Part shown: positions 6,609-63,078 of the stretch, one piece after another | Layout: each line of letters opens with the position of its first letter | How positions within the stretch are numbered: the first letter of the stretch is position 1 | The notes under the pieces: generated by a model | Seen by the model: only the letters and a program-made list of their open reading frames with translations | Databases searched by the model: none | What the model was told of the DNA's origin: nothing | Program-made: the position numbers and the translations under genes | Assembly: GCF_046119375.1 (NCBI RefSeq) | Contig: NW_027362771.1 | Span: forward strand, 529,604,001 to 529,668,000 | Direction: 5' to 3' | Source: Phyllobates terribilis | Lineage: Eukaryota | DNA: 64,000 bases

Positions 6609-6730
6609 AACAATGTGGGAAGGGAAGCAAAAGGCCAGAAAAAGCCATACAGCTGACAAATACTATTGAGATCTCTGCTACTGGAAGTGGAAAAGAAGAA
6701 CAAAGACAAAACAATTTAAATAATAAAAAT

Positions 6731-11372: not shown

Positions 11373-12486
11373 TGACTCGCCCTCCCTGAGCGGTGGTGTG
11401 TCGTCTTGGCCGTGACCCGGTCCGTGCCCAGGGCTGTCACCTAAAAAATGGGCTTTTGGATGAGTGGTTGTTCGACTACGCCACCTGTGGTTTCTGGTGA
11501 AGGCCACCAGCTTTGCAACAGTCCTCTGAGGCTGGTGTTCTGGCAGCTTGGTTGGTACTACTCCCCACAGGCGGAGTAGGCCTCAGGGCAGTGTTTGATG
11601 AACTGTGTGGAGGGATGGTGGGTGCAGTGCCGCGCGGGAATAACCAAGCGGAGGCGGTAAATGAAGTCATCCAGGTTTTTACTCACTTTAGATGCACTTT
11701 CAGCCGCAAAGCTTCTCTCTGCTACACACGGCGTACTGCGGCCACCAGGAAGGGGGTTCAGCACTTCCCAGGTAGATCAGGAGCACCTGTCAGGACCCCG
11801 GTGGTGTGTTCCTCTCCTTCTCCTTCTCCTCCCGCTTGTGTTCCTCCCTGGGATCCACTAAGCCGCCAGGCTTTTCCAACAGTGACGTGAAGTACACAGT
11901 CAGATATCGGGGGCCGGTCACCCCTTTTTGCAGCAGGAATCCCTCTGGCTAGGCCAGAGTGAAGAATACAGGGGGCGACTCCGCTCCGTCCGTATCCCCC
12001 TGGGATCCTTTTGCCTGTGGAGCTTATCTCCTCTGCTCCCCTCCAAGGCCTTCTTAGAACGGGACCTTGACCGGGCAGAGACACTGGTTAACTCTGACCC
12101 GCTCCTCGTCTCAAGGCCTGAGAAAGAGGACCGTGAATCTTCAGCCAGCTACAGACTCTTGCAGGACCCTGACAGAAGACCACAATCAAAAGACCTTGAA
12201 GATGGCCATATATTATATATGATTCTATAAGTGCTTCCTGTAAGTGTTTCCTTCACACTCACCCACTACTTGGTTCCCCTTATCTTTGGTTCCCCCCCCA
12301 TCTCCTCTATCCCGAAATGGGGCAGCACCCTGATGCATTTAGGCCCCCTGCCGGACAGGACTGGTGTAGTGTTGAGTGTGAAGTGGGGTCCTGGGTGATG
12401 CTCCAGCCTTACCTGGAAGAGGAGATACCACACCTCTTAATGAGGTGCAGTACCACTGTGGCGACTGAACCCTCAGGGGCGCCACA
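11373..12486 (-). mobile_element. Solo LTR of the CSD-associated LTR family
   Basis: TGTGGCGCCCC...GAGTCA on the minus strand; 4-bp TSD ACAT at 11369-11372 and 12487-12490. Confidence 0.9.
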
Positions 12487-16742: not shown

Positions 16743-16760
16743 TTTGATGGCTAGCAGTTC

Positions 16761-18332: not shown

Positions 18333-18379
18333 GAACGGAGAGGATTTACTCTTGCCTAGGACGACCTCTCCGAGCGGTC

Positions 18380-19155: not shown

Positions 19156-19156
19156 G

Positions 19157-19166
19157 GCCCGTGCAA
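19157..19166 (-). promoter_or_regulatory. Self-priming-type primer binding site
   Basis: TTGCACGGGC lies 2 nt after the LTR and is complementary to GCCCGTGCAA at 14907-14898, 30 nt from TATAAAA. Confidence 0.75.
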
Positions 19167-21797: not shown

Positions 21798-21815
21798 TGG
21801 CGTAGGCGGCAGGAT
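21798..21815 (+). promoter_or_regulatory. tRNA-Ser primer binding site
   Basis: TGGCGTAGGCGGCAGGAT, 17/18 match to the complement of the vertebrate tRNA-Ser(AGA/TGA) 3' end. Confidence 0.85.
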
Positions 21816-21827
21816 ACGGTGCTCGTC

Positions 21828-22803
21828 ATGAATGGTGACAGTAGCGCGGAAGGTGCTGCCGCGCCTGCTGTAGTAATCCACCCCTCTCCTCCTGTTATGG
21901 CCGTTAGAGACCGGTTAGTTGGTTGCTCTGCAACGGGCGCACTACTTCACCACCTGGCCAAGTTTGATGGGTATAACTTGCTGTTCAGTGATTGGGTAGG
22001 CAGGCAGGTTGAAGAATTCCATTGCCTTGCAAGGTGTCAGCTCTCAGCTGCAACCGAAAGTCGCGCTGAATGCTCTGGAGAGGGATGCCTTTCGCAAAGT
22101 TTTCTTGTTAAAATCCGAGGTGAGGCGAAAGACAGTCGACAACATCATCCGGATACTAGAGAAAGTATTTGATCACATGGCGGCAACAGGGCAACTACAA
22201 TTACAGTTTTTCGCCCCGACCCAGAGAAACAGAGAAAGCCTGATCCAGTATGCTATAGCACTGGAGGAACTGCATCAGGAGATCAAAAAGAAGTTGCCTG
22301 TAACCATGGGTACTGAGGCCGATGTCGACAGCATTCTTCAGGATCAGTTCATCTAGGGGATACGGAGTGAGGCGCTAAGGAGCGAATTGTTGCTGAAGGC
22401 GCGGAATACCCCTGGTGTCACCTATGCCGAAATACAGGAAGAGGCGGTAGCACGGACTTTGGAAGTGAAGCCTGCTTTGCAGTGGAGTAGCCTGCAAGTG
22501 GCTAACACAAGAGAGCCGAGACCAGACCCTGTTCAGGCACAGCTGGCGGCTTTGCAGAAAACCGTGGAAAACCTGACGGAACAGGTACAACAGATGCAAG
22601 TTCGGGAGACGCCTCCGATATGCTTGGCCTTGACGAACCCCCCTATTCCCCTTTATGGTCAACCCCCCTATACCTCAGGAAGGACGCCGACTGCTCCTAG
22701 ACCTGAGGCATCCGGAAGTAGGACAAGAAGACCGGTTCAATGTTGGCGATGCCGAGAACTGGGGCATATGCAGACGTTACTGCCCGAGGAACCTGCCGGC
22801 TGA
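21828..22803 (+). pseudogene. gag: Gypsy gag with zinc knuckle, broken
   Basis: ESLIQYAIALEEL, LQDQFI*GIRS, VQCWRCRELGHM. Confidence 0.75.
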
Positions 22804-22872
22804 AGTCCCGCCATCGGTAAAAGAGAGGCCCTCGCTGTAGTTTGGCATATGGTGAGGCAGGAATGAAAATCA

Positions 22873-25800
22873 ATGCCCAACGTCTGTTCCGAATATCTGA
22901 TTGCAGAGAGTCCCACGTTGGAGGTGCAGTTTGCAGGAAAGAAAGTGGCGTGCTTGGTGGATACCGGATCGGAGGTGACGACCATGCCGATGGAATTTTT
23001 AAAGACGCACTTCGAAGAGACTGTCAAAACAGAGTCAGGATACCTGCTAAGGCTGAAGGCCGCTAATAATGAAGGAATTCCAGTGGCAGGCATCGCCTGG
23101 ATGAGAGTACAGCTGTGCAGCCAGGAGTTGGGAACCAAAGGAGTGGTGCTCGTGAAGACTCAGGCGAGGCCGAATCTCCCGGTGGTTCTGGGAATGAATA
23201 TCCTGAGAGAGCTGGACACCCTTTTGTTTGAGCGTGATGGTCCGAGATACCTCAAACAAGCGACATCCCACAAAGCCACTCAGAGGGCCCTGCAACAGGT
23301 GATCCGTTCGTGCGGCATTCAAAAGAGTTCGGCTGAAGGAAGAGCAGTGGGAGCGGTGTATGTCCCACGCGGGTATGCCGTTGTAATCGCTCCGGGTCAA
23401 GAGAAGCTTGTGTTGATGCCGATAGGGACGCACAGGAAACTGAATGGTGTGGAGGTGATTCTGGAACCAGTGGGATGGTCAGAAGATATGGATAGCCCGA
23501 TGATAGCCCGAACAGTGGCCATTGTGCAAGATGGAAGTGTACCAGTGAGATGTCTGAATCTGCAGATTCATGAGGTGACTCCGGCAGTGGGCACGAAGCT
23601 GGCTGATGTGTATGTGTGTGGTGAAGGAGTCATCCCCAAAAGCCAGTTCACACTGAGGGCAGACCGCCTGAACGCCTGGACCCTGTCGATGCAGACGGCA
23701 GCTGAAGAATCCCCCACTCCCGAGTGGAATGGCAGAAAGATTATGGAAATCATGGGAGTGGATGAGTCCCAGCGGACTCCCGAACAGGCTCGCAGACTGG
23801 AGGCTGCGCTGTGGGAATATCAGGCTGCCTTCTCCAGGGGAGATGAAGACTTTGGTTGCACCAAGGCTGTGGAGCACGAGATACCCACGGGAAACCCCCC
23901 CCCCAATTCGGGAGAGATATCGCCAGATCCCACCGAGTCTTTATCAGGAGGTCAAAGGAATGCTGGCGCAGATGCTGGATAATGGGGTGATCCGGCCGAG
24001 TCAAAGTCCTTGGGCCGCACCGGTCGTGCTGGCCTGGAAAAAAGATGGAACCATATGGTTTTGTGTTGATTACCATAAGCTGAATGCGCACACAGTATGT
24101 GACTCCTACCCGTTGCCCCGGATCGAGGAATCTCTGTCTGCCCTGTGGAAGGTGAAGTACTTCTCCACTCTTGACCTGGCCAGCAGCTACTGGCAGGTGC
24201 CCGTGGCAGCTCTAGATCGGCAGAAGATAGCATTCTTCTTGCCAATGGGACTGTATGAATTTAATCGAATGCCCTTCGGACTGACTAATGCTCCAGGAAC
24301 GTTTCAGCGGTTAATGGAATACTGCTTGGGCGATTACAATTTCGAGTCCGTGTTGATCTATTTGGACAATGTGATTATATTTGGAGATTCGTTCGACGAT
24401 CACCTGAAGAAGCTCCGGCAAGTGTTGCACCGACTGAGGGACGATGGACTTAAGATCAAGCCAAAGAAATGTCACTTGTTCCGGACACAGATCGATCTGG
24501 GGCATGTAGTGTCGGCTGAGGGTGTGCGACCAGCACCGAGTAAAATTGAGGCCATTCAGGCGTGGCCCCGTCCCAAGACCGTGAGAGAAGTACGGGCATT
24601 CCTCGGTTTAGCCAGATACTACCGTTGGTTTGTGAAAGACTTTGCTAAGGTGGCTGAACCACTGAATGAGTTGTTGAGAGGGACGGCACAGGGGCCCAAG
24701 AATCAGCCGATTCGGTGGACGAACCGACAGCAACAGGAATTAGATCGGGTCAGGGCCGCCCTTGTACAGGCACCTTTATTGGCGTATGCTCGCTTTGACC
24801 AACCGTTCACCCTGTACACTGATGGAAGTCTCCATGGTCTGGGAGCAGTGTTAGTCCAAGAACAAGATGGGCGTGAGAGGGTCATCACCTATGCTAGCCA
24901 GTCTCTACAGGACACCGAGCAAAATCCAGGCAATTACAGCTTGTTTAAGCTGGAGATGTTGGCCCTGGTGTGGGCCATGACTGAGAAGTTTACAGAGTAT
25001 CTGGCTGGTTCTGAGATGCTCGTGATGACGGAAAATAATCCGCTTGCACACTTGGAAAACGCTAAGCTGGGAGCCCTGGAGCAGAGATGGGTGTTGCAGA
25101 TGTCCAAGTTTAATTACCGGATTCGGTTCCGTTCGGGTAAAGAGAACTCCAATGCTGATGCATTATCACGAGTGACCTAAGGCGCACCCGAGCATGGGTA
25201 CTGAGTTCCCCGATTTGAGGCGATTGCCTCATTTTGTGGACGTGGCACGTTCAAGTGGGGTGACGACACGGGTCGCCACATTGCTGGGCAAGACTCGTCA
25301 AGAGTGGGCTGAGTTACAGGATGCAGACTCTGAACTGTCACGAGTAAAGAAATGGCTGAGTCAAAAGTCCTGGCCTGACGGGAGAGCAAGAGCACGGCTG
25401 GGTGTAGAAGGACAAAAGCAGCTAAGGCAGTGGGATCGATTGGCCATAGCGGAGAGGATAATGTATCGCTGGATCTACATAGCAGCGGAGCTGGGGTACC
25501 GTTGGCAGGTAGTAATTCCAGCTTCAGTGGCTCTGGACATTGCCCAGGAAGCTCATACATGGGGTGCACATTTCGGGCCTGAGAAGACTTATCGTTGGCT
25601 GAACCGGTACGTGTACACACCTGGCTTAGAAGAAGTTGTGAGAGAGGTTGTGGTAGGTGCCGGGCATGTGAGCTGAATAAGTCCCCGGAGCAGAGGGCTC
25701 CTGTCCAGACAAGCGTGACGTCTGCCCCACTTGAAGTGCTAATGGTGGATTATTTGTCAATTGGGTACGCCAGAAGTGGTCATCATTCATGTCTGGTCAT

Positions 25801-26600
25801 GACTGATCACTTTACTAAGTTTGCCGTCGCTGTCCCCACCAAGGATCAGACTGCTAAGTCCGCAGCGGAGGCAATTTGTAAGCATTTCATCCAGGTTTAT
25901 GGGTGTCCTCAAAGGATACATTCAGATCAAGGTGCTTGCTTTCAAGGTCAGCTCATAACAGAACTGCTACAAGTCTATGAGATTCAGCAATCCCGGACAA
26001 CGCCCTACCATCCGCAGGGAAATGGGGCCTGTGAACGGTTCAACCGAACCTTGCTCTAGATGCTGAGAACGCTTGAACAGAGGCAGAAGGAGCAATGGAC
26101 TGAGTTCCTCCCAGAACTTATGTGGGCCTATAACAATCGGGTCCATAGCACCACAGGATTCACTCCTTACGCGATGATGTTCAGTCGGCCTGGGCGAGAG
26201 ATCGAAGAACTGAGTCTCACTGTACGCGATGAACTAGAATATCGTACAGCCAGTAAGTGGGTCCAGGATCATCGCCGAAGGTTGCGGGAAATCCACCGGA
26301 TAGTAAAAGACCGTGTGCAGGATCATCCCCACCGAGATCGGGGGCCGGTGCACCTAGATGAGTTCCGGGTGGGTGATAAGGTGCTATTGCGAGTCACGCG
26401 TCCGGGAGGGAAGTTGAGCGACAGGTGGGAGGATACGCCCTACACAGTAGTGGAAAGGGTATTCCCAGGGGGAAGTGTGTACACAGTGGTTCCCGAAGGG
26501 TGCATTGGACCCCGTCGCACAATGCACCAGAACTGGCTAAAGAGGTGTATGTCCGACACACCTGCCTGTCACCCTGAGTCACCTGTGCCACCTACGGCGG
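22873..26600 (+). pseudogene. pol: Gypsy protease-RT-RNase H-integrase, frameshifted
   Basis: CLVDTGSEVT; IYLDNVIIF (YLDD mutated); LYTDGSLHGLGAVL; MVDYLSIG, IHSDQGACF, GACERFNRT then TAG. Confidence 0.9.
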
Positions 26601-27964
26601 TTGCACCGAGCAATGTTGAATGCGACTGTTGGGATGACTTGGGGGTGAGACCCTCGGATGTGCAGAGTCCGATAGCGCAAGTTCCAGGTGTTCCAGGCAC
26701 CGCCCCTGATGTTACTGTTCCACTAGATGCGGTGGACCCTCTATCGAGCTCGGCAGGTACTGGTTGCGGAGATCGGAGAGGAACACAGCTGGTGTTTCCC
26801 CGATACGATATAATCCTGAGGAGTATGTGTTACATATGAGTGGTATGAAACCATTTGTCGGGGCGCCAAATTGTAAGTGGGGTGGAGTATAACATGTTGA
26901 CATGTCTTTCTAGTAATGAGTTCATATTACTGACAGTATAAATTTCTCCTGCAATGACTTAGTCCGGCCATTAGGGGTCAGCAAGAAACAAGTAAAGAAA
27001 AAGCCAGGGGATTTGTGAAAAAGCCCAGGAAACAGAGAACCAGGAAGTCCTCTGAGGAGACGAGACGTGTCTGATGCCCAGGGATGTTTGGGAGCTTGCA
27101 CAGACTGCAGCCGGACAGTGTGTTCAAGAAGAAGCTGTGCCTTGTGAGTAACTGAGATATGTGACCGGTCACCAACTGTGTAGTCAGTTAGGGAAAGCTA
27201 GTTGGTGATTCCAGTAGTGCTGAGAACTGCCTGGTGTATATCACTGCTGATGGACTGAGCAGGCTTGATCCAGAGATTGTGAAGGATCTGGTATACTAAG
27301 ACTCTTTGTACGTGGATTCTAGAAAGGACCCCTGTTGTGAACTACACTTTGAGACTGACATTGATTCTAATTCCTGCTTACACCTGAATGTGCTGAAGAG
27401 CTTGGTGAGAAGGAGAAGCTGATCAAACCCTGTGGCCGGAGATCAGGGTCTAATAAAAGGTTTAGTTTGTTAACTGCTTGTATATGTATTAAGTCTGAGA
27501 GATTTCTCTTTGCTCTTGTAAGAAGAGAAACTGTACACTGTATAGGTAACGCGCTGACTAAATATATATATATATATGAGTGTTCTCTATGGGGAAAACA
27601 AGGGTACCCAGATACCATTGTATTAGTGTGGGAGGGGGGTGTAAGTTTATATTCCTGGGAGGACCACGTGCCACATCCGCGATAACATCCTGGGTAGGCC
27701 CTGTACTGAATAAGGGTGGGAGCAGCATAGCCCAGGGGTAGTTTGGCTCATTCCCGCAAGATTGGCACTTGGGCTCTCTCGGGCTGCATAACTTGTATTT
27801 TGTGTTAGTGGCCGTTGTGGCCCATATTTTGTAGAATCGTTTAACCCTGTCATTTGTGTGACCAGTACAAAGAAAGTTATTTGCCACTATACGAGGTCGG
27901 AGTCATTGATAGCAGCACCATATCCCTCATACACATTCGACCGGCGTTCCGGTCGTTACATCTC

Positions 27965-30584: not shown

Positions 30585-31766
30585 TGTGGGGCCCCTGCGG
30601 GTCCAGTAGCCACAGAGATAGTGCATCTCACCCAGAGGTGTAGTACCCCACTCTCGGGTAAGGAGGGAGTACTTCCCGGGACCCACACACCCACATTCAT
30701 TACACTCCACTTCAGTAGGGAAGGGCGAGATTGCTCCTAAGGGAGAGCACAGTCCCTGGTCCCTAGCTGGAGGGTGGAACTAGGTAGAGGAGGTGGGTGG
30801 AGGAAGAAGTTTAGTGCAGCACAGAGGGTAGGAGTATAAAAAGAAGGTAGAAGGTTCTAGATCAAGCCAGTCTCCTGCTCTAGTGCTTGGAGCAGGAGTG
30901 CAGAGTGAGTTGGGAGCTGGGAGCTCAGGAGGAGCTCTGCTCCGGAGATCAAGGAAGGAGAGAAGAGACGAGCAGTGAGAAGGGCTCCAGGAGGAACAGA
31001 GGGGATCCCAGGGGCACGGTGAGTGCGGATGCCACCCGTGCGCCCGAATCCATGCTGACGTGGAGGGATCAGGCCGCAGAGAGGGGACCGGCCCCTAAAC
31101 TAGTGGAGAACAACCAGGCTCAGCTAGCCAACAGGAGGCTGCAGCATTTGCAAGGTGTTGTAGCCAAAACCCACAATTATATCACCGAAAAGGTGGCCAC
31201 ATAGGGTCCAAGGGAATGCAAGTCGCCCAACAAGGCCCGAGGTCACTGGCTTGGGACACTGATTGTGAGGCGCAGGGCAGGAGGGTGAGAGCCAGCGCAG
31301 TGAGACGACCAGGAAAGGTACATAGAACGGGGTCCCATCCGAGTGCTCCTGAAATACCTGAGATTTTGCTGGATCACTACCCCGGAGGACACAGGATGAC
31401 GTTGGCGGTTAAAATCCGGAAAGTGTAACCTGAGGAACTTAACAACTGTGAGTAAAACCTGAAGATTGTACCCACTGTGTCCTTGAATAATTGCAGCGCC
31501 ACCAGCCCTGCACTACACAGCACCAGCAGCATCTACCTCATACAATTTATCATTTCCTGCCCTGGAGCTAAGCTCTGCCTGTGGAGAGCTGAACCAGCTC
31601 TGCTGCGTCACCATCAGCTCCAGTGGATCTGCACCGCAGCGGCGGCCCCCTATAGCCGCATACCACATTATCTCTAAAAACTTTATTCTCTTTTTCTTTA
31701 AATTATTTGACCACCCGGGGCCACGGACCGGCTACCGAGTACCCCACGGCCCCAGGGGGCGCTTCA
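30585..31766 (+). mobile_element. Solo LTR of the CSD-associated family
   Basis: TGTGGGGCCCC...GGGGGCGCTTCA; 4-bp TSD ATAG at 30581-30584 and 31767-31770. Confidence 0.9.
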
Positions 31767-33890: not shown

Positions 33891-36221
33891 CATTTACCCC
33901 TGGGGGTATACATGAACATACTGTATAAAACAATTTTTTTACTGGCACCCTTTAAAAAATTATGTGGGTGTTGCATCACGGACCACGGTCACCCTAGTGA
34001 TATGGTGGTGGAAGATGAGGAGAAAGAGGAGGAAAGAGCAAATAGCCAAAATCAGGGAACGTATACCCATGTGTGGGTGTGAAAAGGTGCATGGGAATAC
34101 ACCTCCCAAAAAATACACTGGATTTGAGTTTATGTTACGCTGCTATCATTCGGTGGTGTTGAGAAGTCTGGCCCAATCCAGCCCGTGTTCATTTTTATAA
34201 GAGTCAGCCTGTCAGCATTTTCAGTTGACAGGCGGATGCGCTTATCAGTTATAATTCCACCAGCGGCACTAAAAACCTGCTCTGATAAAACGCTAGCGGC
34301 AGGGCAGGCCAGGACCTCCAAGGCGTAGAGAGCCAGTTTATTCCATGTATCCAGCTTGGATACCCAATAATTATAAGGCACAGAGGCATCACGGAGGAGG
34401 TTGGTACAGTCGGCAAGGTATTCCCTCAGCATCTTCCCAAACTTTGCACTCCTTGTGAGAGTACCCCGCGCCTCAGGGCCTGTGCGATGGGAGGGGCTGA
34501 GAAAATTCTCCCAGAACTTTGACAGTGTTCCCCTGGCTCTGCTGGATTGGAGTTGTGTCTCTCTCGCCTGTAGTCCTTGGTTATCCAACGAACCGTGACC
34601 TCTGCCGCCAGTGTTTTCAGATGGGAATTTTTTTAATAGTTCCGCAACAAGGGCTTTCTGGTACTGCCCCATTTTTGTAGACCTGTCCACCTCAGGATAA
34701 GAGATAAACAGTTCTCCTTGTAGCGTGGGTCTAGAAGTGTCACCAACCAGTAATGACTGTCACCCAAAATTTTGAGAACGCGAGGGTCATGGGAAAGGCA
34801 GCGTAACATAAACTCAGCCATGCGTGCCAGACTGCTAACAGGCAAGACTTCCGTGTCCTCACCAAGAGGATGAGTGACCATGCTCTTCTCCTCCTGTCTA
34901 TCCTCAGGCCATCCACGCTGAACAGACGTTATGACAGTTGTACACGTAGTACCGTCTATAGCGCATGAAACTTGCTCCTGTTCTTCCTCCTCCTCCTCTT
35001 CCTCATTGTCACCTAATCCACGTTGAGATGAGATGAGGCTGGGCTGTGTGTAATCACCCTGTATGGTTCCTTTCTCCATCTCATCGTGCTCCGCCTGCAA
35101 TGCATCCTCTTTGATTGTGAGCAGAGAGCGTTTCAGAAGACAGAGAAGCGGGATGGTGACGCTAATTATGGCGTCATCGCCACACACCATCTTGGTGGAG
35201 TCTTCAAAGTTTTGGAGGATGGTACATATGACTGACATCCATGTCCACTCCTGAGTTCTTATGTGTGGAGTCTGAATACCGACAGCCTTGTTGATGCTGG
35301 TACTCAACAACTGCCCTCTTCTGCTCACAAATCCGTCCCAACATCTACAGTGTAGAGTTCCAACGTGTGGGGACATCACACACCAGTCTGTGAGGCGGAA
35401 GCTGCAAACGCTGCTGAAACACGGCAAGGGCGGCGGAAGCTGTAGGTGACTTTCTAAAAGGGGCACACAGGTGGCGTACTTTAACAAGCAGATTCAGCAG
35501 CTCTGGGTAGGATTTGAGAAATCGCTGAACCACGAGGTTAAGCACATGGGCCAGGCATGGTATGTGTGTGAGCTCGTCTCGCCTCAGAGCCGCCACCAGG
35601 TTCCGGCCATTGTCTCACACGACCATGCCTGGCTGTAGGTTCAGCCGTGTGAGCCACAGATCTGCCAGCTCTTTCAGAGTTGTCCACAACTTTTCAGCAT
35701 TGTGCGGTTTGTTACGTAAGCATATTAGCTTCAACACAGCCTGTTGCCGCTTGGCCGAGGCAGTGCTGCAGAGCTTCCAGCTTGTGACTGATGTGGTAAT
35801 TTCGGAGATGGAGGCTGAAGAGGAGGAGGAGGCTGAGGAGGATGAGGTGCAGGAGCTGTAGACTGTGGGGGCAACCCTGATTGACCTAGGTGTAACATAC
35901 CTGGCGGCGTCCTTGCATGGTGGTCCATCTCCCACTGTGCAAGAGGGCGCACTTGATCTCCTGTCCAGAATGTCTCTCTGGCTTCCCTCCATGCTGTCTG
36001 TTTGTGTCTGTTTCTGCTGCTTAAGGGCGGCGCCCGATCACTTCCTGCCTTTTGTACCTGCTGTGGGTCACACCCCTTGTGCGTCCTCAGCCTATTGCTG
36101 TCTGTCACTTGGTATATAGCTCAGCAGCTCCCTTCTATCCCTGCCTGAGCATAGTGTTTCCTTCAGTGTGTGCTTGCACTCTGAAGGTGCCAGGTCCCGT
36201 CTCTTGTCTCCTGCTTTTTGT

Positions 36222-40865: not shown

Positions 40866-41698
40866 GGCTATGTGCCCACGATGCAGAAATGAAGCAGAAA
40901 ATTTCTGCAGCATTTCTGCATCTCCCTGGCAGAAAAAACGCATGCAGATTGTGCATGCGTTTTTCCTGCAGAATACATGCGGATTCACATGCGTACCCAC
41001 ATGCGTTAACGCATGTGTTTCCGCATGCGGACTGACAAGCACTTTCCAAGCGATAGCATCACTTGGAAAGTGCTTGACAACTAGGTCACACTGTATAAAT
41101 CCATGCAAACAGCATGGATTTATATAGTGTGACCGTAAAAATAAAAAAATAAAGTTATACTTACCCCCGATACCCCGCCGCGTGTGCTGTCGCGCTCGTC
41201 CTGGCTTCTTCCGGGTTGCCGGCATCTCGCGAGACAGCCTGCGGTCACATGACCGCGACGTCATCTCAGGTCCTGGAAGGTAAGCGCTGCAGGGGCCGCC
41301 GGACAGGTGAATATAAACTTTATTTATTATTTTATTCTTTTTTTTACAGGTACAATGGTACCCAGGTCTGGATGAGAGTCTCCTCTCCTCCAGAACTGGG
41401 TACCATCCGCACATAGAGACGCATAAAATCCGCTTGTACAAATGTACAGACACGGATTCTATGCGTCTCAATGCAAGTCAATGGCGGCGCTTCCGCTGCG
41501 CTTCCGCAAAATTAATGAACATGCTGCGGATTTATTTGCGCTGTAGAAACGCTGCGGAAAAATCCGGAGCATGTGCATTGACATTGCGGAATGCCATTGG
41601 GGACCATGGGGTGCGGATTACCATGCGTTTTTGATGCGTTTCCGCTGCGGAAATTCCGCAGCATAAACGCATGAAAAACGCATCGTGTGCACGCAGTC
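40866..41698. mobile_element. PIF/Harbinger MITE
   Basis: TIR GGCTATGTGCCCACG with degenerate right copy; flanks TTA/TAA; transposase text resumes on both sides. Confidence 0.85.
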
Positions 41699-42984
41699 TA
41701 AAAGGCAACATTTTGAGCGCAAGCAGTCGTGAAATGTGGGAATTTAGTACTGTTGCCTCTGGGGCGTTGGCTGCGTATTTGCACTTGCGTTCCAAGGAGT
41801 GGGGTATGGACAACTGAACGCTGCGCTGGGACAAGGACGTGGACGTGCTTCCTGATGTTGCTACTTGAGAGTGTGCAATGACAGGTGCAGGGCAGGAGGC
41901 ATCTTCGCATGCACCATGGACAGGGGATTGGCTTGCATGTACAACAGCGGAAGAAGCAGTGGTGCCACCCGTAGACACTGTTCCTGGACCCTGGGGTTCG
42001 GCCCACAAAGTCGGGTGCTTTGCTGCCATGTGCCTGATCATGCTGGTGGTGGTCAGGCTGCTCATTTTGCCACCCCTGCTGATGCCAGCCTGGCAGGTGG
42101 TGCAAATGGCCTTTTTGAGGTTATCGGCAGAATCTTTAAAAAACAACCAGACTCGGGAAGACCTAACAGTTCTACTGGCAACTTCCTTCGTGTTGGTGTT
42201 ACGGGGAATGGTTGCCTGCCTTCTGTCTGCGGCCACCGCACTGCTTCTTCCTGCCTGTTGGGGTGCTCTGCCTCCCTCCCCCTGTGAGCTGCTCTCCTCG
42301 CTCTGCATGTCCTCCTGCCAGGTTGGGTCAGTTACTATATCATCCACCACCTCGTCTTCCACTTCCGCAGTCTGGTCCTCCTCCTGACTTTCTGGCAATT
42401 GTGTCTCAACATTGTCCACCTCTTGTGACACCTTCCCACGGTCGCCTTTGTGTGTCCGTGGCTGCTCAAATATTTGGGCATCGCTACATGCGATCTCCTC
42501 TTGCCCCGCTTCAAGTGGACCGGATGAGAGGCCCGAATCTATAAATGGGAAAGTGAACAGCATTTTGGAGTGTCCAAGTGTGGGATCAGTTGTCTCTGGG
42601 CACTCGGCATGGTGTGAGGAAGGAGGTTCAGGGTGAGGAATATGCAGTCCAGACTCACAGCTACTGAGACTTGACTGTGTGGAAGAGAAGGTGGTGGTGG
42701 TGGTGGCTAAGTGACTGGAAGCATTATCTGCTATCCAACCAATAACCTTTTCACACTGCTCTGTGTTCAATAGTCGTGTTCTGCGGTCCCCAATTAATTG
42801 GGACAGGAAGGCCGAGCAAGAAGATGTGTTTGTTGTGGCACAATTTCAGCTTGCCCACGGCCTCGGCCTCTGCATGCACCATCACCATCACGTCCAGTTT
42901 CCTGTCCCTTGCCACGTGCCTTGCCCATTTTACATGGAGGACAATATCTTCCACACTCACTACAAATGACTGAATTTGGAGCGA

Positions 42985-43661: not shown

Positions 43662-44904
43662 TGACGAGCCCCCTGGGCCGTGGGGTACTCGGTGCCAGGC
43701 CGGTCGTTGCTAAGGGAGATGTCACAGTGACGGTGACCCAGTCCGTGACCCAGGGCGGTCATTCAAAAGGCGATTTTTATAGGGGATTTATGTACAAAGT
43801 TCGTGACCCCACCTGTGGTATGCAGCTAAAGGGAGCGGCTGCTGCAGAGCAAGTCCTCTGGAGCTGATGTTAGTGCAGCAAAGCTGGTGTGGCTCTCCAC
43901 AGGTAGAGCTTAGCTCCAGGGTAGTGTAGATGTAATAGGTGATGCTGGGCATTGTAGTGCAGGGGTGATGGCGCAGATAATAATCACAGAGACAGTGGGG
44001 TGCAGTCTTCCGAGTTTACTCACAGTTGTTAAGTTCCTCAGGTTACAGGTTCCGGACTACAGCCTCCCACGTCGTGCTGCGTTCACCAGGCAGGGGTTCA
44101 GCAATCCCTCAGGTAATTCAAGAGTGCCTGACAGGACCCCGTTCTATGTGCCTTCCTCAGTCGTCTTCCTGCGCTGGCTCTCAGCCTCCTGCCCTGCGCC
44201 TCACAATCAGTGTCCCAATCCGGTAGCCTCGGGTCTTGTCGGGCGACCTGCAGTCCCCTGGACCCTCTGTGGCCACCTTTTCGGCGATATAATTGTGGTT
44301 GTGGCCACTGCACCTTGCAAGTACTGCAGCCTCCGGTTCATAGCTGAGCCTTGTAGTTCTCCACTAGTTTAGGGGCCGGTCCCCTCTGCGGCTCGATCCC
44401 TCCACCGCCTGGCAGATTCGGGCGTACGGGTGGCCTCCAGCACTTCCCGTACCCCTGGGATCCCTTCTGTTCCGGGAGACTTTCTCCTGCTCCCTCACCT
44501 CTCTCAGTCCTAGGCCTCTCCTCAGGCCTGCTCCGGAGCAGAGCTCGTGCAGAGCCCCTGCTCCCCTCACTTTCCTCCTCCAACTGAACACACTGACTGG
44601 ACTGAGCTCACTCTCCAAGATGGTTCCCCTTTTTATACAGCTTCCTTTCATGCTCCCCTAATCTACTTCCTCCACCCACACCCACTACATGGTTCCCCCT
44701 TACTTGGTTCCCCTCCACTCCAGCCAGGGATCAGGGACTGTGCTCTCCCCTAGGAGCAATCTCGCCCTGCCCTACTGAAGTGGACTTTTTGGATGCAGGT
44801 GTTAGGGTCCCGGGCAGCACTCTATCCTTACCTGAGAGTGGGATACCACACCTCTGTGTGAGATGCAGTACCTCTGTGGCGACTGAACCCTCAGGGGCGC
44901 CACA
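43662..44904 (-). mobile_element. Solo LTR of the CSD-associated family
   Basis: TGTGGCGCCCC...GGGGGCTCGTCA on the minus strand; no clean TSD (AAGA vs GATA). Confidence 0.85.
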
Positions 44905-47098
44905 GATATGTGTCTCTAATATAGTTTGGTACACCTACACTAACTAGAAACAAGCAAATCTCTCCCTAGCTCAGTAGCACCTCTCCCTACACTGTCTGAT
45001 TCCAGAGTGACTGTGACGAGCATGGTGGCACCCGATCTTATATACACCTGCTCTCGCTGTGCGGCCAGCCAATCACTGTAATGCCACAACCAACATTGCT
45101 GCTGCATTACAGTGCGTGGCAGACGATCCCTGCATGTTCATTGGCTCTGTAAAGAGCGCCAAACATGCAGGGAGTGGACCCGAGCTCCTGCCGAGCAACC
45201 CCGGAAATACTCGGCAAGCGCCGAGCATCTCGAGCAGTGAGATCCTCGAGCAAGCACCGAGCAGTAGCGAGCATGTTCGCTCATCACTACTGGTGACGCG
45301 CCCCCTGGGGCCGTGGGGTACTCGATTGCCAAGCCGGTCCTTTTTGGGGTAGTCACGATGGCAGTGACCCGGTCCGTGGCCCAGGGCGGTCAATAATTAA
45401 AGTCAGTCAATTGGGGGAATAAAGAAAAGGGGAATAAAGTGTTTGGGGACAATGTTCGTGGCGCCACCCGTGGTATGCGGCAATATGTGGCCACCGCTGC
45501 TATTCAGATCCACTGGGGCTGTTGGTGACGCAGCAAAGATGGTTCAGCTCTCCATGGGCAGAGCTAAGCCCCAGGGCAGTATATAGGGCTTGATGAGGTA
45601 GATGTTGTTGGTGTATCGCAAGGCAGGTGGCGTAGTAATTAATTCAAGGACACAGCGGGGTGCAGTCTTCAAGTATTTACTCACAGTTATCAAGATGCTC
45701 CAGGTTACAACTGCCAGATTATAACCGCCCACGTCGTCCCGTGTCCTCCGAGGAAGTGATCCGGCCAACTCTCAGATAACTTGGGTGCACTTGAACGGGA
45801 CCCCTTTCTGTGTACCTCTCCAGGTCGTCTCTCTCTCTGCGCTGGCTCTCGCCCTCCTGCCCTGCGCCTCACACACAGTGTACCGAGCCAGTGGCCGCGG
45901 GCCTTGTTGGGCGATGTCCTGTCTGTCCCCTTTGTCCTGTATGGCCACCTTTTCAGCGATTGTGTGTGGACTGTGGCTACGGCATGTGAAGATACCGCAA
46001 CCTCCGGTTTGCTAGCTGAGCCTTAAAGTACTCCACTAGTCTGGGGCCGGTCCCCTCCTGCGGCCTTGATCCCTCCACGATCAGTGTGAACTCGGGCGCA
46101 CAGGTGGCATCCCGCACTCGCCGTGCCCCTATCATTCCTTCTGCTTCTGGAGCCCTCCTCACTGCTCCGGTCTTCTCTCCTCACTCTCCTCCTGGGCCTC
46201 TCTGGCTGGGCCCTACTCCTCACTCACTGAACTCCTCTGGAACTCCTAACTCCTTCTAGATGTTTCTACCCTTGCTTTTATACTGTTTCTTCAGTGCTCC
46301 CCTAAACTACTTCCTCCACCCACCTCTTCTACTTAGTTCCACCTCCAAACAGGGACCGGGTCTGTGCTCTCCCTCAGGAGTTATCTGGACCCTCCCTCAG
46401 GAATGGTGTAGTGTTGAATGTAAGCGGTTGGGTCCCGGGTAGTGCTCCCTCCTTACCTGAGAGTGGGGTACCACACCTCTGGCTGAGATGCAGTACTTCT
46501 GTGGCAACTGGACCCGCAGGGGCGGCACATTTCCCCCCCGTTAAACACAACACAGAGTAGAAAAACAAGAATTTAAGACATCCAAAATTTTCAGAATGCA
46601 TTCACAGGTAAAGCAGTAAATAGATAACTTTTTCTTCCCTTTATGGGAGGCACTTTTTCTTAAAAGTTACATATAAAACAATATAAGATCACTTTAAATA
46701 ACATTTTATCAAACAAGTCCAACAGGCTGCAGTGAGATCCTTTTCAGGGTGTCCTTCTCACTGGTGTAAGTGCAATGTGGGGGACCCGTCCACAAAAAAC
46801 CCCAACGTAGGCCCTGGGCGTGGCTGCAGGGTATAGCTGATCCACTCGTTGGATCACGTGTTCGGCCTCACCAAACTGTTTTTTGTTCAGTGGTCTATAA
46901 AACCAATAAGAAGCACCTTAAGAAGTGCTAACTTTTTACAATAAAAGTTTTTGGGTTAATCACTGTCCTTAACCATAATGTCCTTTTTCTTAACCAGGTC
47001 CACACAAAACAAACAAAAACTTTTCTTTAAACATACACGGATTATACCAGTACCCTTCCAGGTAACTATATACAGTTTTCTGATCATTTTAACTCAGT

Positions 47099-47257: not shown

Positions 47258-47566
47258 CCTACTCGGTACTCGGTAGCCGGGCCGGTCCTTTTTGGGGTAG
47301 TCACGATGGCAGTGACCTGGTCCATGGCCCAGGGTGGTCAATAATTAAAGTCAGTCAATAGGGGGAATAAAGAAAAGGGGAATAAAGTGTTTGGGGATAA
47401 TGTTCGCGACGCCACCCGTGGTATGCGGCTATATGTGGCCGCCGCTGCTGTTCAGATACACTAGGGCTGCTGGTGACGCAGCAAAGATGGTTCAGCTCTC
47501 CACGGGCCGAGCTAAGCCCCAGGGCAGTATATAGGGCTTGATGAGGTAGTTGTTGTTGGTGTAGCG

Positions 47567-48839
47567 TGACGCGCCCCCTGGGCCGTGGGGTACTCGATAG
47601 CCGAGCCGGTCGGTGCTGGGGATGTCACGGTGGCAGTGACCTGGTCCATGACCCAGGGTGGTCAATTAAAGGGAAAGTAAAAGGGAATAAAGTTTTTAGG
47701 ATAATAATGATCGTGACGCCACCTGTGGTATGCGGCTATTTGGGGCCGCCGCTGCGGTGCAGATCCGCTGGAGCTGATGGTGACGCAGCAGAGTTGGTTC
47801 AGCTCTCCACAGGTAGAGCTAAGCTCCAGGGCAGGAAATGATAAATTGAATGAGGTACATGTTGTTGGTGCTGTGTAATGCAGGGCTGGTGATGGCGCAG
47901 CAATTATTCAATGACACAGTGGGGTGCAGTCTTCAGGTTTTACTCACGGTTGTTCAATTCTCCAGGTTACAATGGCCAGTGTGTAACCTCCCACGTCGTC
48001 CTGTGTCCTCCAGGGTAGGGATCCAGCAATCTCTCAGGTACCTCAGGAGCACTTAAACGGGACCCCGTTCTATGTACCTTTCCCGGTCGTCTCACTGCGC
48101 TGGCTCTCGCCCTCCTGCCCTGCGCTTCACAATCAGTGTCCCAGGCCAGTGGCCTCGGGCCTTGTCAGGAAACGTGCAGTCCCCTGGACCCTATGCGGCC
48201 ACCTTTTCGGCGATGTAATTGTGGATGTTGGCTGCAGCACCTTGAAAATGCAGCAGCCTGCGGTTGTCTAGCTGAGCCTGGTTGTTCTCCACTAGTTAGG
48301 GGGCGGTCCCCTTCTGCGGCCTGATCCCTCCACGTCAGCATGAATTCGGGCGCACGGGTGGCCTCTGCACTCACCATGCCCCTGGGATCCCCTCTGTTTC
48401 TCCTGGATCCCTCCTCACTTCTCCTCTCTCCTCTCTTCATTCTTTCTCCTGGGCCTCTCTGGCTGGGCCCTGCTCCTTTCTCCACTCCTCCTGAGCAGAA
48501 CTCCTCCTGAGCTCCTCCTCCCAGCTCTCTCTCCTCTGTACTGTCTCCTCACAACTGACTGCTTCTAGATGGTTCCCCCTCTTCTTATACTCTTCCTGTC
48601 TGTGCTCCCCTGAACTACTTCCTCCACCCACCTCCTCTACCTAGTTCCACCCTCCAGCTAGGGACCAGGGACTGTGCTGTCCCTTAGGAGTAATCTCGCC
48701 CTTCCCTACTGAAGTGGAGTGTATTGGATGTGGGGGTGTGGGTCCCGGGTAGTGCTCCCTATTTACCTGAGAGTGGGGTGCCACACCTCTGGGTGAGATA
48801 CAGTACCTTTGTGTCTACTGAACCCGCAGGGGTGCCACA
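47567..48839 (-). mobile_element. Solo LTR of the same family inserted in a related LTR
   Basis: TGTGGCACCCC...GCGCGTCA; TSD AGCG at 47563-47566 and 48840-48843; host LTR text resumes. Confidence 0.9.
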
Positions 48840-57375: not shown

Positions 57376-58939
57376 CGTCCTTTACTTCGCCCGGGGGTCT
57401 CGGGTCAACTGTTCCAGCTCTCAATGATTGAGCCACTCGAATATTGTACCACTCTTCTCGCATTTCTTGGATCTCCCGCCGCATCTCTCGGGCCCATTCA
57501 GGTTCGGCCGTGGGCGACGGGGGGCACTGCATTGCCCTGGACCATCCCTGCCAGGGTCACTACCCCCATCTCCTGTTCCCTCACGTGGGCCTCTGCCCCT
57601 GCCTCCAGAAATGTCATACGCGGGTTGGTGTGCAAGCGCTCTCGCAAGGCATGTCTCTGTAGCGCCCCGAGGGTTCGGCCGCTACAGGGGTATTGCACGT
57701 CTGCCAGAGGTCTGATATTCCACTCCCGGGTAAGGATGGAGTATGGACCAGGGCTTAGGTAGCTGCATGCAGCACACACACACCATTTCCAGGGGACAGC
57801 TCAACGGTGCTCCCATTAGACAGTAATGCAGGCACGACAGACCATGTCCCTGGCTGGAGTGGGGAGGGGGGAAGAACACCCAGTGATGTAGGAGCAGGAG
57901 GGGACGGTACCTGAGCGTAGGTAGGAGCTCATTGGTTGCTGGTCACCTGGGCTCATGTTCTAGAGGGAAGTATAAAAGGTGGGCACCATCTTAGATCAGG
58001 GGTCAGTTCAGTCAGAGAGAAATACAGTGGAGAGGTGAGAGGGTGCAGAGGCTCTGTAGGAGCTCTGCTCAGAGGCAGGCCTAGAGAAAAGGCCGGGGCC
58101 TGAGAGGAGAAGGAACAGAGGAGAAGAGAAGGAACAAGAAAGGGAAAGAAGTGGCCAAGAAACAGAAGGGCTCAGGAACAAGAAGGTGGAAGGGACCCTA
58201 AGGACCAACGTGAATCGGGTGACGGGTCAGGCAAGAAGAGGGTACCGGATCCCGATTTGGTGGAAGCTAATAATCTTCAGCCAAGAACCGGAGGTCGCGA
58301 CCATCACTTGGTGCGACCCCTTGCTAAACCTTGCTAGGAAGGCATACCATATAGGGTAGCGGGAAACGGGGCCCACGTTTGCCCGCATAGACCCGCGGGA
58401 GCTGGACAAAAGCTTGGTCACTGGCGGGGCATGAGCCGAAGTAAGGATAGGAAGGAGCTCTGAACCATACTCCTGAAGTGCCTGGGGGTTGACTGAGTCC
58501 CTCACCTGGTGGACACCGCACGGCTTGGGTGGTCACTGCTGGCGCTGAAGTGACCCGGAGCATATGAACCGTGAGTAAAAGACATTGGACTGCAGTACGT
58601 TGTCTGTGTACTCCTTGCTCCTCCAGCACTAACGGCACTGGGACTCTCTACACCATCACCCCCCCACCATCCTCTACACTGCCCTGGGGCTGCACTCTTC
58701 CCGTGGGGAGTAACACTACCTCAGCTGCAAACACCATCAGCCTCAGCGGTCTGCACTGCAGCGGCGGTTAGCCCTGACCGCAATCCACGGGTGGCGTAGT
58801 CGGACATTACCTACTGCACATCATAGACTACCACTGGTCTGACCACCCTGAGCCATGGGACCGGGTCGCCACTACTACTCCCAGCATTGCCCTGAAGACC
58901 GGTCCCGAGTGCCCCACGGCCCAGGGGGCGAGTCAGCTT

Positions 58940-58957
58940 TGGCGTAGTCGGCAGGAT
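58940..58957 (+). promoter_or_regulatory. tRNA-Ser primer binding site
   Basis: TGGCGTAGTCGGCAGGAT, complement of the tRNA-Ser(AGA/TGA) 3' end, 4 nt after the LTR. Confidence 0.9.
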
Positions 58958-59587: not shown

Positions 59588-59722
59588 AGGCCGGAGACGA
59601 CGCCGCGGAGGGAGCCACGAGGACCAAGGCAGGTAAAGGGGACGTTACCACCCCAGGCCCAGCAGCTGCAAGCCCGCCCCAGCCTCCCGTCGCAGAGCCC
59701 GAAGCCCCACTCACCGTACCTG

Positions 59723-60643
59723 TTGCCGCGCCGTCACTACTGCCGGCTAGGCCTCAAGCGGCAGGAGCGCGGTGAAGAAGGAGGCGTCACCAGCCGGGTC
59801 GCAAGGCCTAGTGAACCCGGGCGCCGTTACCCCACCAGCGCCCCCCTCCTGGACCGGGCCGCCACCGGAAGACCCCCGGCCTGGTCGCAAGGCCGAGTGC
59901 CCCCGGGCGCTGCTCCCAAACCGGGGCCCTCCGCTATACCACCGCTGGGCGCAGACCTGTTTGCCCAGCACACCGGTCCGGATGGACTGCCGTTGGTGTG
60001 GCCGGCCGAGCTGGTCAGCGGTCGACCATGGAAGACCCAGCCCCCGCGCGAGCCCCTGATACCTGCTCCGGAGCCCGTAGAAGTCACCTTGCCCCCACTA
60101 GAGGACGCCCAATTTGAGTGGGACCCCACTGGCGAAAACCTAATGGGGTTCACTCAGGAGACCCGGGCAGATGCAGCCCGCCGTCTGGAGTCCTGTCGTC
60201 AGCAGCTGGTGACCTTTGAGCGGGAACGGCGACAGAGGCGCGTTAGGGAGGAGCGGCTTCAGGCCCAGAGTGCCGAGCAGAAACGCAAGGCCCGTCAAGA
60301 CCCCCGAGCCGCCCGCGGTCCCCGAGCCACCGGGACCGTGATAAAGTTCCAGATGGAGAATGGCTGGGGCTTTATAAGGGACCCGGAAACCGCCGGTGAC
60401 GTCTTTGTGACTCGCAGGGACGTCGAAAGCCATCTGCCAGAGGGACACCGTGGACGTGACCTATACCCTGGTGATGTGGTCACCTATACCCGGCACAAGG
60501 GCGCCAAAGGACCATACACCCTCCATGTCCACCGGCTTACTGAGGAGGAACTGCAGCACTACGGCTACGAGGAGAGCCAAGAGGACCTGGACGGGTCTGA
60601 AGACTATCCTGAGGAAGGTGCGCAAGGAGGACACCGCTACTGA
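59723..60643 (+). CDS. Cold-shock-domain protein: Pro-rich region, Arg/Glu helix, CSD (60326-60538), acidic tail
   Basis: TGTVIKF...NGWGFI (RNP1-like), DVFVT (RNP2-like), LYPGDVVTY...KGPYTLHV; the true start is uncertain (TTG call). Confidence 0.85.
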   Translation: MPRRHYCRLGLKRQERGEEGGVTSRVARPSEPGRRYPTSAPLLDRAATGRPPAWSQGRVPPGAAPKPGPSAIPPLGADLFAQHTGPDGLPLVWPAELVSGRPWKTQPPREPLIPAPEPVEVTLPPLEDAQFEWDPTGENLMGFTQETRADAARRLESCRQQLVTFERERRQRRVREERLQAQSAEQKRKARQDPRAARGPRATGTVIKFQMENGWGFIRDPETAGDVFVTRRDVESHLPEGHRGRDLYPGDVVTYTRHKGAKGPYTLHVHRLTEEELQHYGYEESQEDLDGSEDYPEEGAQGGHRY

Positions 60644-63078
60644 AAAGTGGCAGTGCGCAAGTGTAAATAGTTAGCCGTCAGGGTAAAGGAACTGTTATGA
60701 GACTGTTACCTGTGTGAAAGTTTCCCCTTATCCCTTATCTGGCTGGGGACTGAGAACAGCCATCCCCCTTCCCCTACCTGGCTGAGGACTGAGAGCAGCC
60801 ATTCCCCCTTTCCAACCGGCCGAGGACTGGGAACGGCCAATTCCCTGTAAATAGTTGCGCTTCCTAAAGCACCCACTACTGGTTTTATAACAAGACTGTA
60901 ACGTCTACCTCGGGACAGAGAGTCCCTCACGTTTAAAAGTTTACTGAAGTTTTGCACTTAAAAGAAGATTGAACACCTGGTCACAAGTTGCCCGGAGGCC
61001 AGAGTTCAAGAATGTGTTTTGAAAATGTTTTTCTTGCAAATGTTTTATGTAGAAAAAGTTTTATAGGCTGCTAAATAATAATGTGAAAGTTTTCTATAAT
61101 GTTTATATGACAAAAGAGTTCCGGAGGCATTAGCAAAGTGTTTTATAATAGTGTAACAAGTGAGGAAAGTGTTTCCCATAAAGGGAATTGAACTGTCGTC
61201 CATTTTCTAATGTGAAAAGTTTGAAAAAGTTTTGCATGTCCTGTACTTAATTGTCTTTGCTCTTTTCCAGCCCGAGGACGTGCTGTGGTTTACCAGGGGG
61301 GAATGTAGCGCCCCGAGGGTTCAGCCGCTACAGGGGTATTGCACCTCTGCCAGAGGTGTGATATTCCACTCCCGGGTAAGGATGGAGAATGGACCAGGGC
61401 TCAGGTAGCTGCATGCAGCACACACACCCCATTTCCGGGGGACAGCTCAACGGTGCTCCCATTAGACAGTAATGCAGGCACGACAGACCATGTCCCTGGC
61501 TGGAGTGGGGAGGGGGGAAGAACACGCAGTGATGTAGGAGCAGGAGGGGACGGTTCCTGAGCGTAGGTAGGAGCTCATTGGTTGCTGGTCACCTGGGCTC
61601 ATGTTCTAGAGGGAAGTATAAAAGGTGGGCACCATCTTAGATCAGGGGTCAGTTCACTCAGAGAGAAATACAGTGGAGAGGTGAGAGGGAGCAGAGGCTT
61701 TGCAGGAGCTCTGCTCAGAGGCAGGCCTAGAGAAAAGGCCGGGGCCTGAGAGGAGAAGGAACAGAGGAGAAGAGAAGGAACAAGAAAGGGAAAGAAGTGG
61801 CCAAGAAACAGAAGGGCTCAGGAACAAGAAGGTGGAAGGGACCCTAAGGACCAACGTGAATCGGGTGACGGGTCAGGCAAGAAGAGGGTACCGGATCCCG
61901 ATTTGGTGGAAGCTAATAATCTTCAGCCAAGAACCGGAGGTCGCGACCATCACTTGGTGCGACCCCTTGCTAAACCTTGCTAGGAAGGCATACCATATAG
62001 GGTAGCGGGAAACGGGGCCCACGTTTGCCCGCATAGACCCGCGGGAGCTGGACAAAAGCTTGGTCACTGGCGGGGCATGAGCCGAAGGAAGGATAGGAAG
62101 GAGCTCTGAACCATACTCCTGAAGTGCCTGGGGGTTGACCGAGTCCCTCACCTGGTGGACACCGCACAGCTTGGGTGGTCACTGCTGGCGCTGAAGTGAC
62201 TCGGAGCATATGAACCGTGAGTAAAAGACATTGGACTACAGTACGTTGTCTGTGTACTCCTTGCTCCTCCAGCACTAACGGCACTGGGACTCTCTACACC
62301 ATCACCCCCCCACCATCCTCTACACTGCCCAGGGGCTGCACTCTTCCCGTGGGGAGTAACACTACCTCAGCTGCAAACACCATCAGCCTCAGCGGTCTGC
62401 ACTGCAGCGGCGGTTCGCCCTGACTGCAATCCACGGGTGGCGTAGTCGGACATTACCTACAGCACATCATAGACTACCACTGGTCTGACCACCCTGAGCC
62501 ACGGGACCGGGTCGCCACTACTACTCCCAGCATTGCCCTGAAGACCGGTCCCGAGTGCCCCACGGCCCAGGGGGCGAGTCAGCTTAGCTGCGCATCTCTG
62601 AGGCCGAACTGGTCCCTAAGTACTAGGTCCGGGGGCCCCACTCCCACATCTTCTAGGTTCGTTTTCCTAGTGATGTAAGTGTACACACTCTGTAGGGCGT
62701 TGACATTTTGGGTCACAGTCTCCCCCTCCCTTTGTACCTGTTGGAACAGTCGCATCATTAACTTTAGTAGGGTCCCCATGCATTTCTTCTAGGATCCGTA
62801 CCACCTTTTCCACCGTATTTCGGTCAGTGGGGGAACGAAACATTACTGACTGTCGAGCTTCTCCTTCTAAAGCCAGCAAAGCTATCTCTTCTTGCATATC
62901 GGGGGTCATTGGGTGCATCCGTAACATGCTCTTAACCCTTTCTACCCAATCCCACAGCATCATGTTGTCTCCGGTAAACTTTGGGAGATTATTCAACATG
63001 GCGCCCAGGGGTAGGCTAGCTGTAGGGGCTCTCGCGTTGGCCTGGTCGGCCATGCCTGCAACTGCGTCTGGGGACGAC

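Follow-up and report, generated by a model that had tools for sequence, protein, structure and literature searches.

A motif matching the tRNASer 3′ end within U5 of Barthez-like LTRs in Phyllobates terribilis is probably a selected, non-priming tRNA-binding site

A tRNASer-matched motif inside the LTR

What use does a retrotransposon have for a second complement to the 3′ end of its primer tRNA, placed inside its own LTR? This question is raised by the 5′ LTR of a non-autonomous Ty3/gypsy element in a 64-kb window (the whole stretch of DNA analyzed here) of the 10.6-Gb genome of Phyllobates terribilis. The element contains a short motif, designated motif I, upstream of its true primer-binding site (PBS), and is laid out as follows, with positions counted in the window.

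57658..58935, + strand: 5′ LTR of the non-autonomous Ty3/gypsy element (TG...CA), 98.2% identical to the 3′ LTR
58574..58579, + strand: candidate poly(A) signal AGTAAA, from the sequence
58700..58706, + strand: 5′ strand of helix H1
58785..58791, + strand: 3′ strand of helix H1, adjoining motif I without a gap
58792..58803, + strand: motif I, complement of the CCA end and acceptor strand of tRNASer(AGA/TGA)
58840..58935, + strand: long U5 hairpin region up to the LTR end, from an alignment of real copies and single-sequence folds
58858-58867 with 58897-58906, + strand: inner stem of the U5 hairpin
58868..58878, + strand: site A, in the hairpin loop, complement of tRNASer nucleotides 1-11 (10/11 in this copy)
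58940..58957, + strand: true PBS, 18 nt, tRNASer(AGA/TGA), behind a 4-nt spacer
59588..60643, + strand: open frame with a cold-shock domain (Pfam CSD, E 3.7e-8), replacing gag-pol
61295..61303, + strand: polypurine tract, from the sequence
61304..62581, + strand: 3′ LTR of the same element, with H1 (62346-62352 with 62431-62437), motif I (62438-62449) and site A (62514-62524)

The end of the 57658..58935 LTR was set by many genomic copies with a 4-bp target-site duplication (TSD). From the candidate AGTAAA signal, which occurs with at most one mismatch in 168 of 182 collected LTR records, we infer that motif I lies in U5. The cold-shock frame encodes 351 aa and has relatives throughout many other copies and subfamilies; an RNA-chaperone domain on a retroelement may merit separate study. 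Behind the 3′ LTR, positions 62582-62598 comprise the 4 nt of the PBS spacer, 9 more nt and TCTC, which matches the 5′ flank; this is probably an unprocessed right end joined with filler, and locus L030 looks similar.

Autonomous relatives of the element are about 8 kb long, have 4-bp TSDs and encode a PNMA-like Gag followed by protease, RT, RNase H and integrase, an order found at loci L116, L118 and L120. PF14893 (PNMA) matched five of eight frames adjoining the PBS (E 8e-6 to 5e-4), two of them at the curated cut-off. PNMA genes have been placed in the Barthez lineage of Ty3/gypsy, as stated in the accessible sections of PMC3670739, which mention no LTR motif; since the Gag here is PNMA-like, we call the family Barthez-like, a likeness that extends to the protease-RT-RNase H-integrase order. 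This placement rests on Gag and domain order, the RT tree having contained no named Barthez element. In Gmr1-like elements the integrase precedes RT, which is not the arrangement in the autonomous relatives, and a Gmr1-like identity was rejected. The protease-RT interval of one pol frame (L125:2652-4241) gave a weak dUTPase match (E 8e-4, below cut-off).

The window holds further LTRs that bear on motif I.

11373..12486, − strand: solo LTR, AGA type, motif I at 11483-11473
30585..31766, + strand: solo LTR of a CGA-type subfamily, motif I deleted at ~31666, TSD ATAG
43662..44904, − strand: LTR, CGA type, motif I at 43811-43799
45294..46529, − strand: 3′ LTR, CGA type, motif I at 45466-45454
47402..47414, − strand: motif I of an interrupted LTR starting at 49689
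47567..48839, − strand: LTR, CGA type, nested inside another LTR, motif I at 47721-47709

Also present are a LINE (5766-9517) whose ORF1 is GDSL/OSK-like and whose ORF2, 996 aa long, is of endonuclease-RT type, another gypsy element (15177-19170, − strand) in which the integrase tail is of SH3 type, pieces of hAT transposase with BED finger and dimerisation domain (34130-35493 and 41532-42845, − strand), and two further Ser(AGA)-primed LTR families (20726-27189 and 53946/63098), both without motif I.

Seven copies of the motif had been predicted in the window, and each was found where it had been placed. The copies at 58792 and 62438 match the complement of the tRNASer(AGA/TGA) 3′ end over 12 nt and that at 11483 over 11 nt; the copies at 45466, 47414, 47721 and 43811, for which 11-12 matches had been claimed, each match the tRNASer(CGA) complement at 12 of 13 positions. 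The distance to the LTR end, predicted at roughly 110-175 nt, was measured at 111-173 nt: 144 (58792), 144 (62438), 111 (11483), 173 (45466), 155 (47721) and 150 nt (43811), the 47414 copy giving no value because its LTR end is lost. The attribution of the two forms to tRNASer(AGA/TGA) and tRNASer(CGA) also stands, as genes for both tRNAs are present in the host. A tRNASer(CGA) gene was found at one of six loci retrieved (L006) and tRNASer(AGA) or tRNASer(TGA) genes at five of 20 (L166-168, L170 and L176), the remaining loci being retroelement PBSs or tRNA-derived copies. PBS comparison indicated that both tRNASer types act as true primers within the Barthez-like family.

Exact 20-mers of the CGA form numbered 23,060 genome-wide versus 0 for a reversed control, indicating that motif I is not a product of chance. 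Conservation was then assessed in a motif-blind sample, in which upstream flanks served as query against 60 stretches of 10 kb (50 arbitrary and 10 adjoining the window) together with the window itself. This sample contained 43 LTRs, one of them cut at the locus edge, and motif I was present in 41 of the 42 evaluable. The single LTR lacking it was the 30585 solo LTR, whose clean deletion had been singled out in the original prediction; the deletion is real and, with 2-3 nt of microhomology at the join, looks like an ordinary microhomology deletion. The TSD of this solo LTR reads ATAG/ATAG. Among the motif-blind LTRs the match to tRNA was about 100% over nucleotides 1-11 of motif I and dropped after nucleotides 11-13, although nucleotide 11 deviates from tRNA in some AGA subfamilies (12/161). 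Motif I thus complements only CCA and the acceptor strand, over 10-13 nt, its conserved span being as long as NCCA and that strand together. Directly 3′ of it, the spacer is hardly alignable across subfamilies. A transcription-factor site was rejected by inspection; the resemblance to the CRE motif is confined to the CGA form.

The adjoining helix and a site matching the tRNA 5′ end

In 145 of 168 LTRs, the 7-mer preceding motif I can pair exactly with a stretch 78-112 nt upstream, and this helix (H1) occurs in three compensatory forms (67, 41 and 37 LTRs). In single-sequence folds its mean probability was only 0.2-0.5, and motif I was usually paired with something nearby. The base facing U1 of motif I is mostly A or G in CGA subfamilies (50/60), so that H1 may reach across the UGG and make it inaccessible.

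About 75 nt downstream of motif I, in or near the loop of the long hairpin, lies site A, which complements the 5′ end of tRNASer and switches with the isoacceptor. It is complementary to tRNA nucleotides 1-11, or in one subfamily to nucleotides 1-6 and 11-18, and its core was predicted to be unpaired with a mean probability of 0.44-0.78, depending on class (single-sequence folds). A duplex test on a fixed window gave a weak result (124/168) because the window took in the hairpin stem, and was redone on the loop. In the 62 of 78 rows with a parsable loop, three of them Y-CGA, the loop favored the 5′ end of its own tRNA over that of the other isoacceptor in 57, and it beat shuffled sequences (P≤0.05) in 48. 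Computed for isolated duplexes, energies were −21 to −24 kcal/mol for motif I, −18 to −24 kcal/mol for site A and −34 to −36 kcal/mol for the PBS, with the acceptor stem itself at about −8.6 kcal/mol.

Since the two strands of the acceptor stem complement each other, motif I and site A could pair together. This is the basis of an alternative that we consider unlikely, in which motif I would be an intramolecular lock: paired with site A or with a nearby anti-I sequence, it would keep site A off the PBS until the primer comes, mimicking the tRNA 5′ strand and binding no tRNA. Motif I and site A do have 6-7 complementary bases in common, as the pairing within the acceptor stem dictates, X-AGA copies carry a partial anti-I 25-35 nt downstream, and I-A pairs are possible at L216 and L299. 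What separates tRNA pairing from I-A pairing is the G7-U66 wobble of tRNASer(CGA), where motif I has A in 39 of 39 copies and site A has C in all 34 that could be parsed (five could not), so that each fits the tRNA and the two mismatch each other. In addition, predicted I-A pairing averaged 0.01-0.03 (in folds without pseudoknots), the isolated A:I duplex reaches −9 to −12.5 kcal/mol versus −13 to −21 kcal/mol for A:tRNA, the LTR end at L279 has no complement of the core of motif I, and a lock would have no need to keep the CCA complement.

Isoacceptor tracking and Ser-primed families from other organisms

We searched the whole genome for an exact motif I followed by an exact PBS 110-190 nt downstream and obtained 63,605 matches, with the CGA type accounting for eight of the first 100 listed. 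The internal motif agreed with the true PBS of its own element, a check that the original prediction had proposed for each subfamily, with 5 discordant cases among 63,605 exact pairs: CGA-type motif I with an AGA-type PBS once, and the reverse four times. On inspection, two of the five were recombinants, two had a PBS apparently rewritten by the other tRNA, and one was complex. Because the concordance reflects mostly shared descent, it is not independent evidence. A third form of PBS, found in three dispersed elements (L131-L133), suggests priming by another tRNASer(CGA) isodecoder; all three retain the usual CGA-type motif I, indicating that the primer rewrites the PBS and that motif I is inherited.

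Switches between isoacceptors were counted on a tree of the segment from motif I to the LTR end, with motif I and site A excluded (68 rows, 127 columns). The AGA type required two changes on this tree, and a single AGA origin was not rejected (AU p 0.267); only one or two independent switches are thus shown, and an earlier count of three independent routes for site A was dropped to this number after the same test. In the alignment, the intermediates L108 and L194 hold a CGA-type site A core beside a new AGA-type core, and the Y-AGA site A could be derived from an X-AGA intermediate by one short deletion. Two other trees were not used for counting: that of the upstream LTR, with five changes, was set aside for long branches and signs of recombination, and that of RT (38 loci, none an autonomous Y-AGA element) included five rows (L124, L127, L191, L198 and L203) whose RT belongs to a nested or adjacent element. 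The AGA and CGA groups are old; between them, Gag is 35-37% and RT about 80% identical.

At L073/L111, motif I has been overwritten by an 18-nt tRNA copy, which provides a non-selective route by which motif and PBS could switch together. Recombinants between subfamilies, including AGA with CGA types, were seen at L106, L110, L147, L160, L162 and L385/L386, and imply co-packaging. PBSs extending far beyond 18 nt, up to the anticodon loop, occurred at 11 loci (L007, L010-L012, L114, L115, L164, L165, L171, L174 and L175) in a search that selected for them, and may represent read-through of under-modified tRNA during plus-strand synthesis.

To look beyond the host, metagenome contigs were scanned for the 18-nt AGA PBS (at least 115 stretches), and a simple rule defined 23 LTR-like families among the matches listed, a few of which are probably not LTRs. 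An exact motif I of 10-12 nt, 37-86 nt before the PBS, was present in four of these 23 families versus 0 of 49 others, again among the matches listed. In all four it stands directly behind a hairpin stem of 6-8 bp; by background frequency, a helix so placed would be expected at 0.05, 0.16, 0.16 and 0.30 in the four families. The other 19 of the 23 listed families lack motif I, as do the two in the window, and motif I is therefore not generally needed. At 22 other Ser-PBS loci tested, two of them from the window, no match to motif I exceeded 7 nt. A scan of viral contigs gave a single match.

Three of the four families with motif I have PNMA-type Gags that are 36-45% alike and 18-26% alike to that of the host family, the fourth having too little flank for Gag. 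One of them has teleost proteins as its named Gag relatives, and these distant relatives are likely from fish. The three Gags, by which alone the metagenome families were placed, form a clade (90/96) whose sister lacks motif I and which did not join the host family, indicating that motif I arose twice or was often lost.

Pairing with the tRNASer 5′ end is stronger for the final 24 nt of the LTR than for upstream windows in 21 of the 23 LTR-like families (−15.0 versus −8.8 kcal/mol). The same preference was seen in 29 of 49 members of the non-LTR set, and the usual TACA end explains part of the LTR effect. Among the metagenome loci, U5 ends complementary to the 5′ end or D-stem of tRNASer, with or without motif I, were noted at L205, L216, L222, L241, L249 and L284. 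Complementarity of the U5 end to tRNASer is possibly a general feature of Ser-primed gypsy LTRs.

Traces of reverse transcription and the probable role of motif I

Duplications involving motif I were recovered with two patterns. The first, with two PBS copies, gave 90 matches; of 30 examined, 28 begin with a complete LTR, which is followed by an exact 18-nt copy of the tRNA and then by U5 again from near position I+18, one has the same join without the upstream motif I, and one is another rearrangement. The second gave 35 matches, and 16 of 30 examined were U5 duplications, five of them at the ends of 3′ or solo LTRs. Several products join different subfamilies. In these U5 duplications, at about 0.1-0.2% of elements, the direct repeat has misdirected a strand transfer; they show how motif I could have arisen, not why it was kept.

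Such events invite the explanation, already offered in the original prediction, that motif I is a fossil, left when the PBS was once duplicated and the LTR became longer, inherited since and occasionally rewritten from tRNA or PBS. The context of CA, 4 nt and PBS does resemble a true LTR end, duplications of this kind occur (the 90 two-PBS matches and the 16 of 30 of the second pattern), one motif I has been replaced by an 18-nt tRNA copy, and only one or two switches are shown. Against this, exactly 10-11 nt have been kept beside a spacer that can hardly be aligned and across Gags that are 36-45% alike, the match ends at the length of the acceptor stem whereas rewriting yields 18 nt, and the flush helix recurs in unrelated LTRs. 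We regard a fossil as quite unlikely; the idea may be right about the origin of motif I and does not account for its conservation.

The same duplications would be expected if motif I acted on DNA, providing strand transfers between co-packaged RNAs with a spare acceptor or jump point. Plus-strand transfer onto motif I in 28 of 30 cases, minus-strand jumps from motif I to the PBS in 16 of 30 (once in both LTRs of one element) and the joining of different subfamilies fit this role, which is nevertheless very unlikely, given that the products are aberrant duplications in ~0.1-0.2% of elements and that site A and H1 would be unexplained.

A further proposal in the original prediction was a decoy for 3′ tRNA fragments (3′-tRFs). 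Such fragments repress LTR elements via the PBS, according to PMC12853362, and motif I complements the 3′ half of a tRF. It lacks, however, PBS positions 12-18, with which the 5′ (seed) end of an 18-nt tRF would pair; it acts in cis, with one copy per RNA, and is weaker than the PBS; and it would leave site A, with its match to the tRNA 5′ end, unexplained. A decoy is highly improbable on these grounds.

Alternative priming, also proposed, would put 18 nt copied from the tRNA behind the 7-mer of the motif. This signature was found three times with CCAC and never with CAAC among about 64,000 elements; two of the three cases are deletions to the PBS, and in one motif I was overwritten beside a normal 3′ LTR. 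The short LTR variants that priming at the motif would predict thus amount to at most three candidates genome-wide, and none of these three loci has a 3′ LTR ending at motif I. Like a working PBS, motif I complements the 3′ end of a host tRNA including CCA; it does not set the LTR end, which lies 111-173 nt further on, and it is not copied anew from the tRNA in each cycle. Although 10-13 nt suffice for priming in some gypsy elements (an 11-nt PBS; PMC1635307), although three copies carry the full 18-nt tRNA copy at motif I, and although I-primed cDNAs might integrate poorly, counts of three and zero with no corresponding 3′ LTR make a priming site that yields short-LTR elements the least credible of these explanations.

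Of the idea that the motif pairs with tRNA, then, the tracking of tRNASer ends has held and is joined by a second tRNA-matched site and by LTRs from other organisms; the mechanisms offered with it are mostly unlikely. Judged from sequence comparison and folding, motif I is probably a selected site within U5 that binds tRNASer without priming, and it is likely part of a three-site U5-tRNA interaction together with site A and the PBS. The UGGC of motif I would give the free GCCA tail of the tRNA a toehold, from which the acceptor stem would open and pair with the motif, and the freed 5′ strand would be caught by site A. With the tRNA 3′-OH stacked on H1, extension would be blocked. The most likely use of such a site would be to capture the primer tRNA, open it and hand it to the stronger 18-nt PBS (about −35 versus about −22 kcal/mol); the next most likely would be to hold a second tRNA that bridges two RNAs. 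The rare U5 duplications between motif I and PBS would then be by-products of the direct repeat.

Related arrangements are known. In FIV, U5 reportedly pairs with the 5′ end of the primer, tRNALys3 (work of Miller et al. in 2001), which resembles site A; FIV is not known to have a second CCA-end site. In Ty1 and Ty3, a bipartite PBS lets several RNA segments pair with one primer tRNA (PMC5371799); judged by sequence, site A is of the same kind, complementing another part of the tRNA than the PBS does. Whereas the Ty1 and Ty3 segments described there bind different tRNA parts, motif I repeats the acceptor/CCA match of the PBS, in U5 and against a helix. Drosophila gypsy has a further tRNA site, about 11 nt long and dispensable for priming, and a tRNA bridge was shown in vitro; that site is located at the 3′ end of the RNA, where it pairs with the anticodon and T stems (PMC1635307), whereas motif I matches the CCA end. 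In the T-box antiterminator, UGGN is fixed beside helix A1 and the tRNA 3′ end stacks on the helix (PMC7583486). At motif I, likewise, UGG directly adjoins a helix, a likeness of geometry only for which no homology is claimed; the T-box pairs with NCCA only and reads the anticodon, whereas motif I would pair over 10-13 nt and open the acceptor stem. Multipartite tRNA binding is therefore already known, and the apparently new aspect, within the literature searched, is a second CCA-end site beside a helix: no description of one lying flush against a helix was found in the main texts of freely available papers, and PMC11181671, PMC3159445, PMC3185550, PMC3185528, PMC3675109 and PMC12220202 contributed nothing further.

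A bolder reading, drawn by analogy and with only a slim chance of being correct, is that vertebrate Barthez-like retrotransposons possess a T-box-like dock in U5. Its helix-flush UGG would take only uncharged tRNASer, the loop site would open the acceptor stem, and the tRNA would be passed to the PBS or would bridge genomes; the dock would have arisen twice or been kept since the fish-tetrapod split. If this were true, the charging state of tRNASer would determine primer choice and perhaps also the change from translation to packaging.

How a primer tRNA is selected, opened and held is known in detail for only a few yeast, fly and retroviral models. For genome annotation, PBS finders may call a false LTR end at motif I. 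For retroelement biology, the Barthez-like family offers a second CCA-end site that is seemingly blocked for priming, and a natural covariation experiment in which three sites switch together between two isoacceptors, over tens of thousands of copies; the sites are short, and a 350-nt RNA with two tRNAs would be enough to test the predictions.
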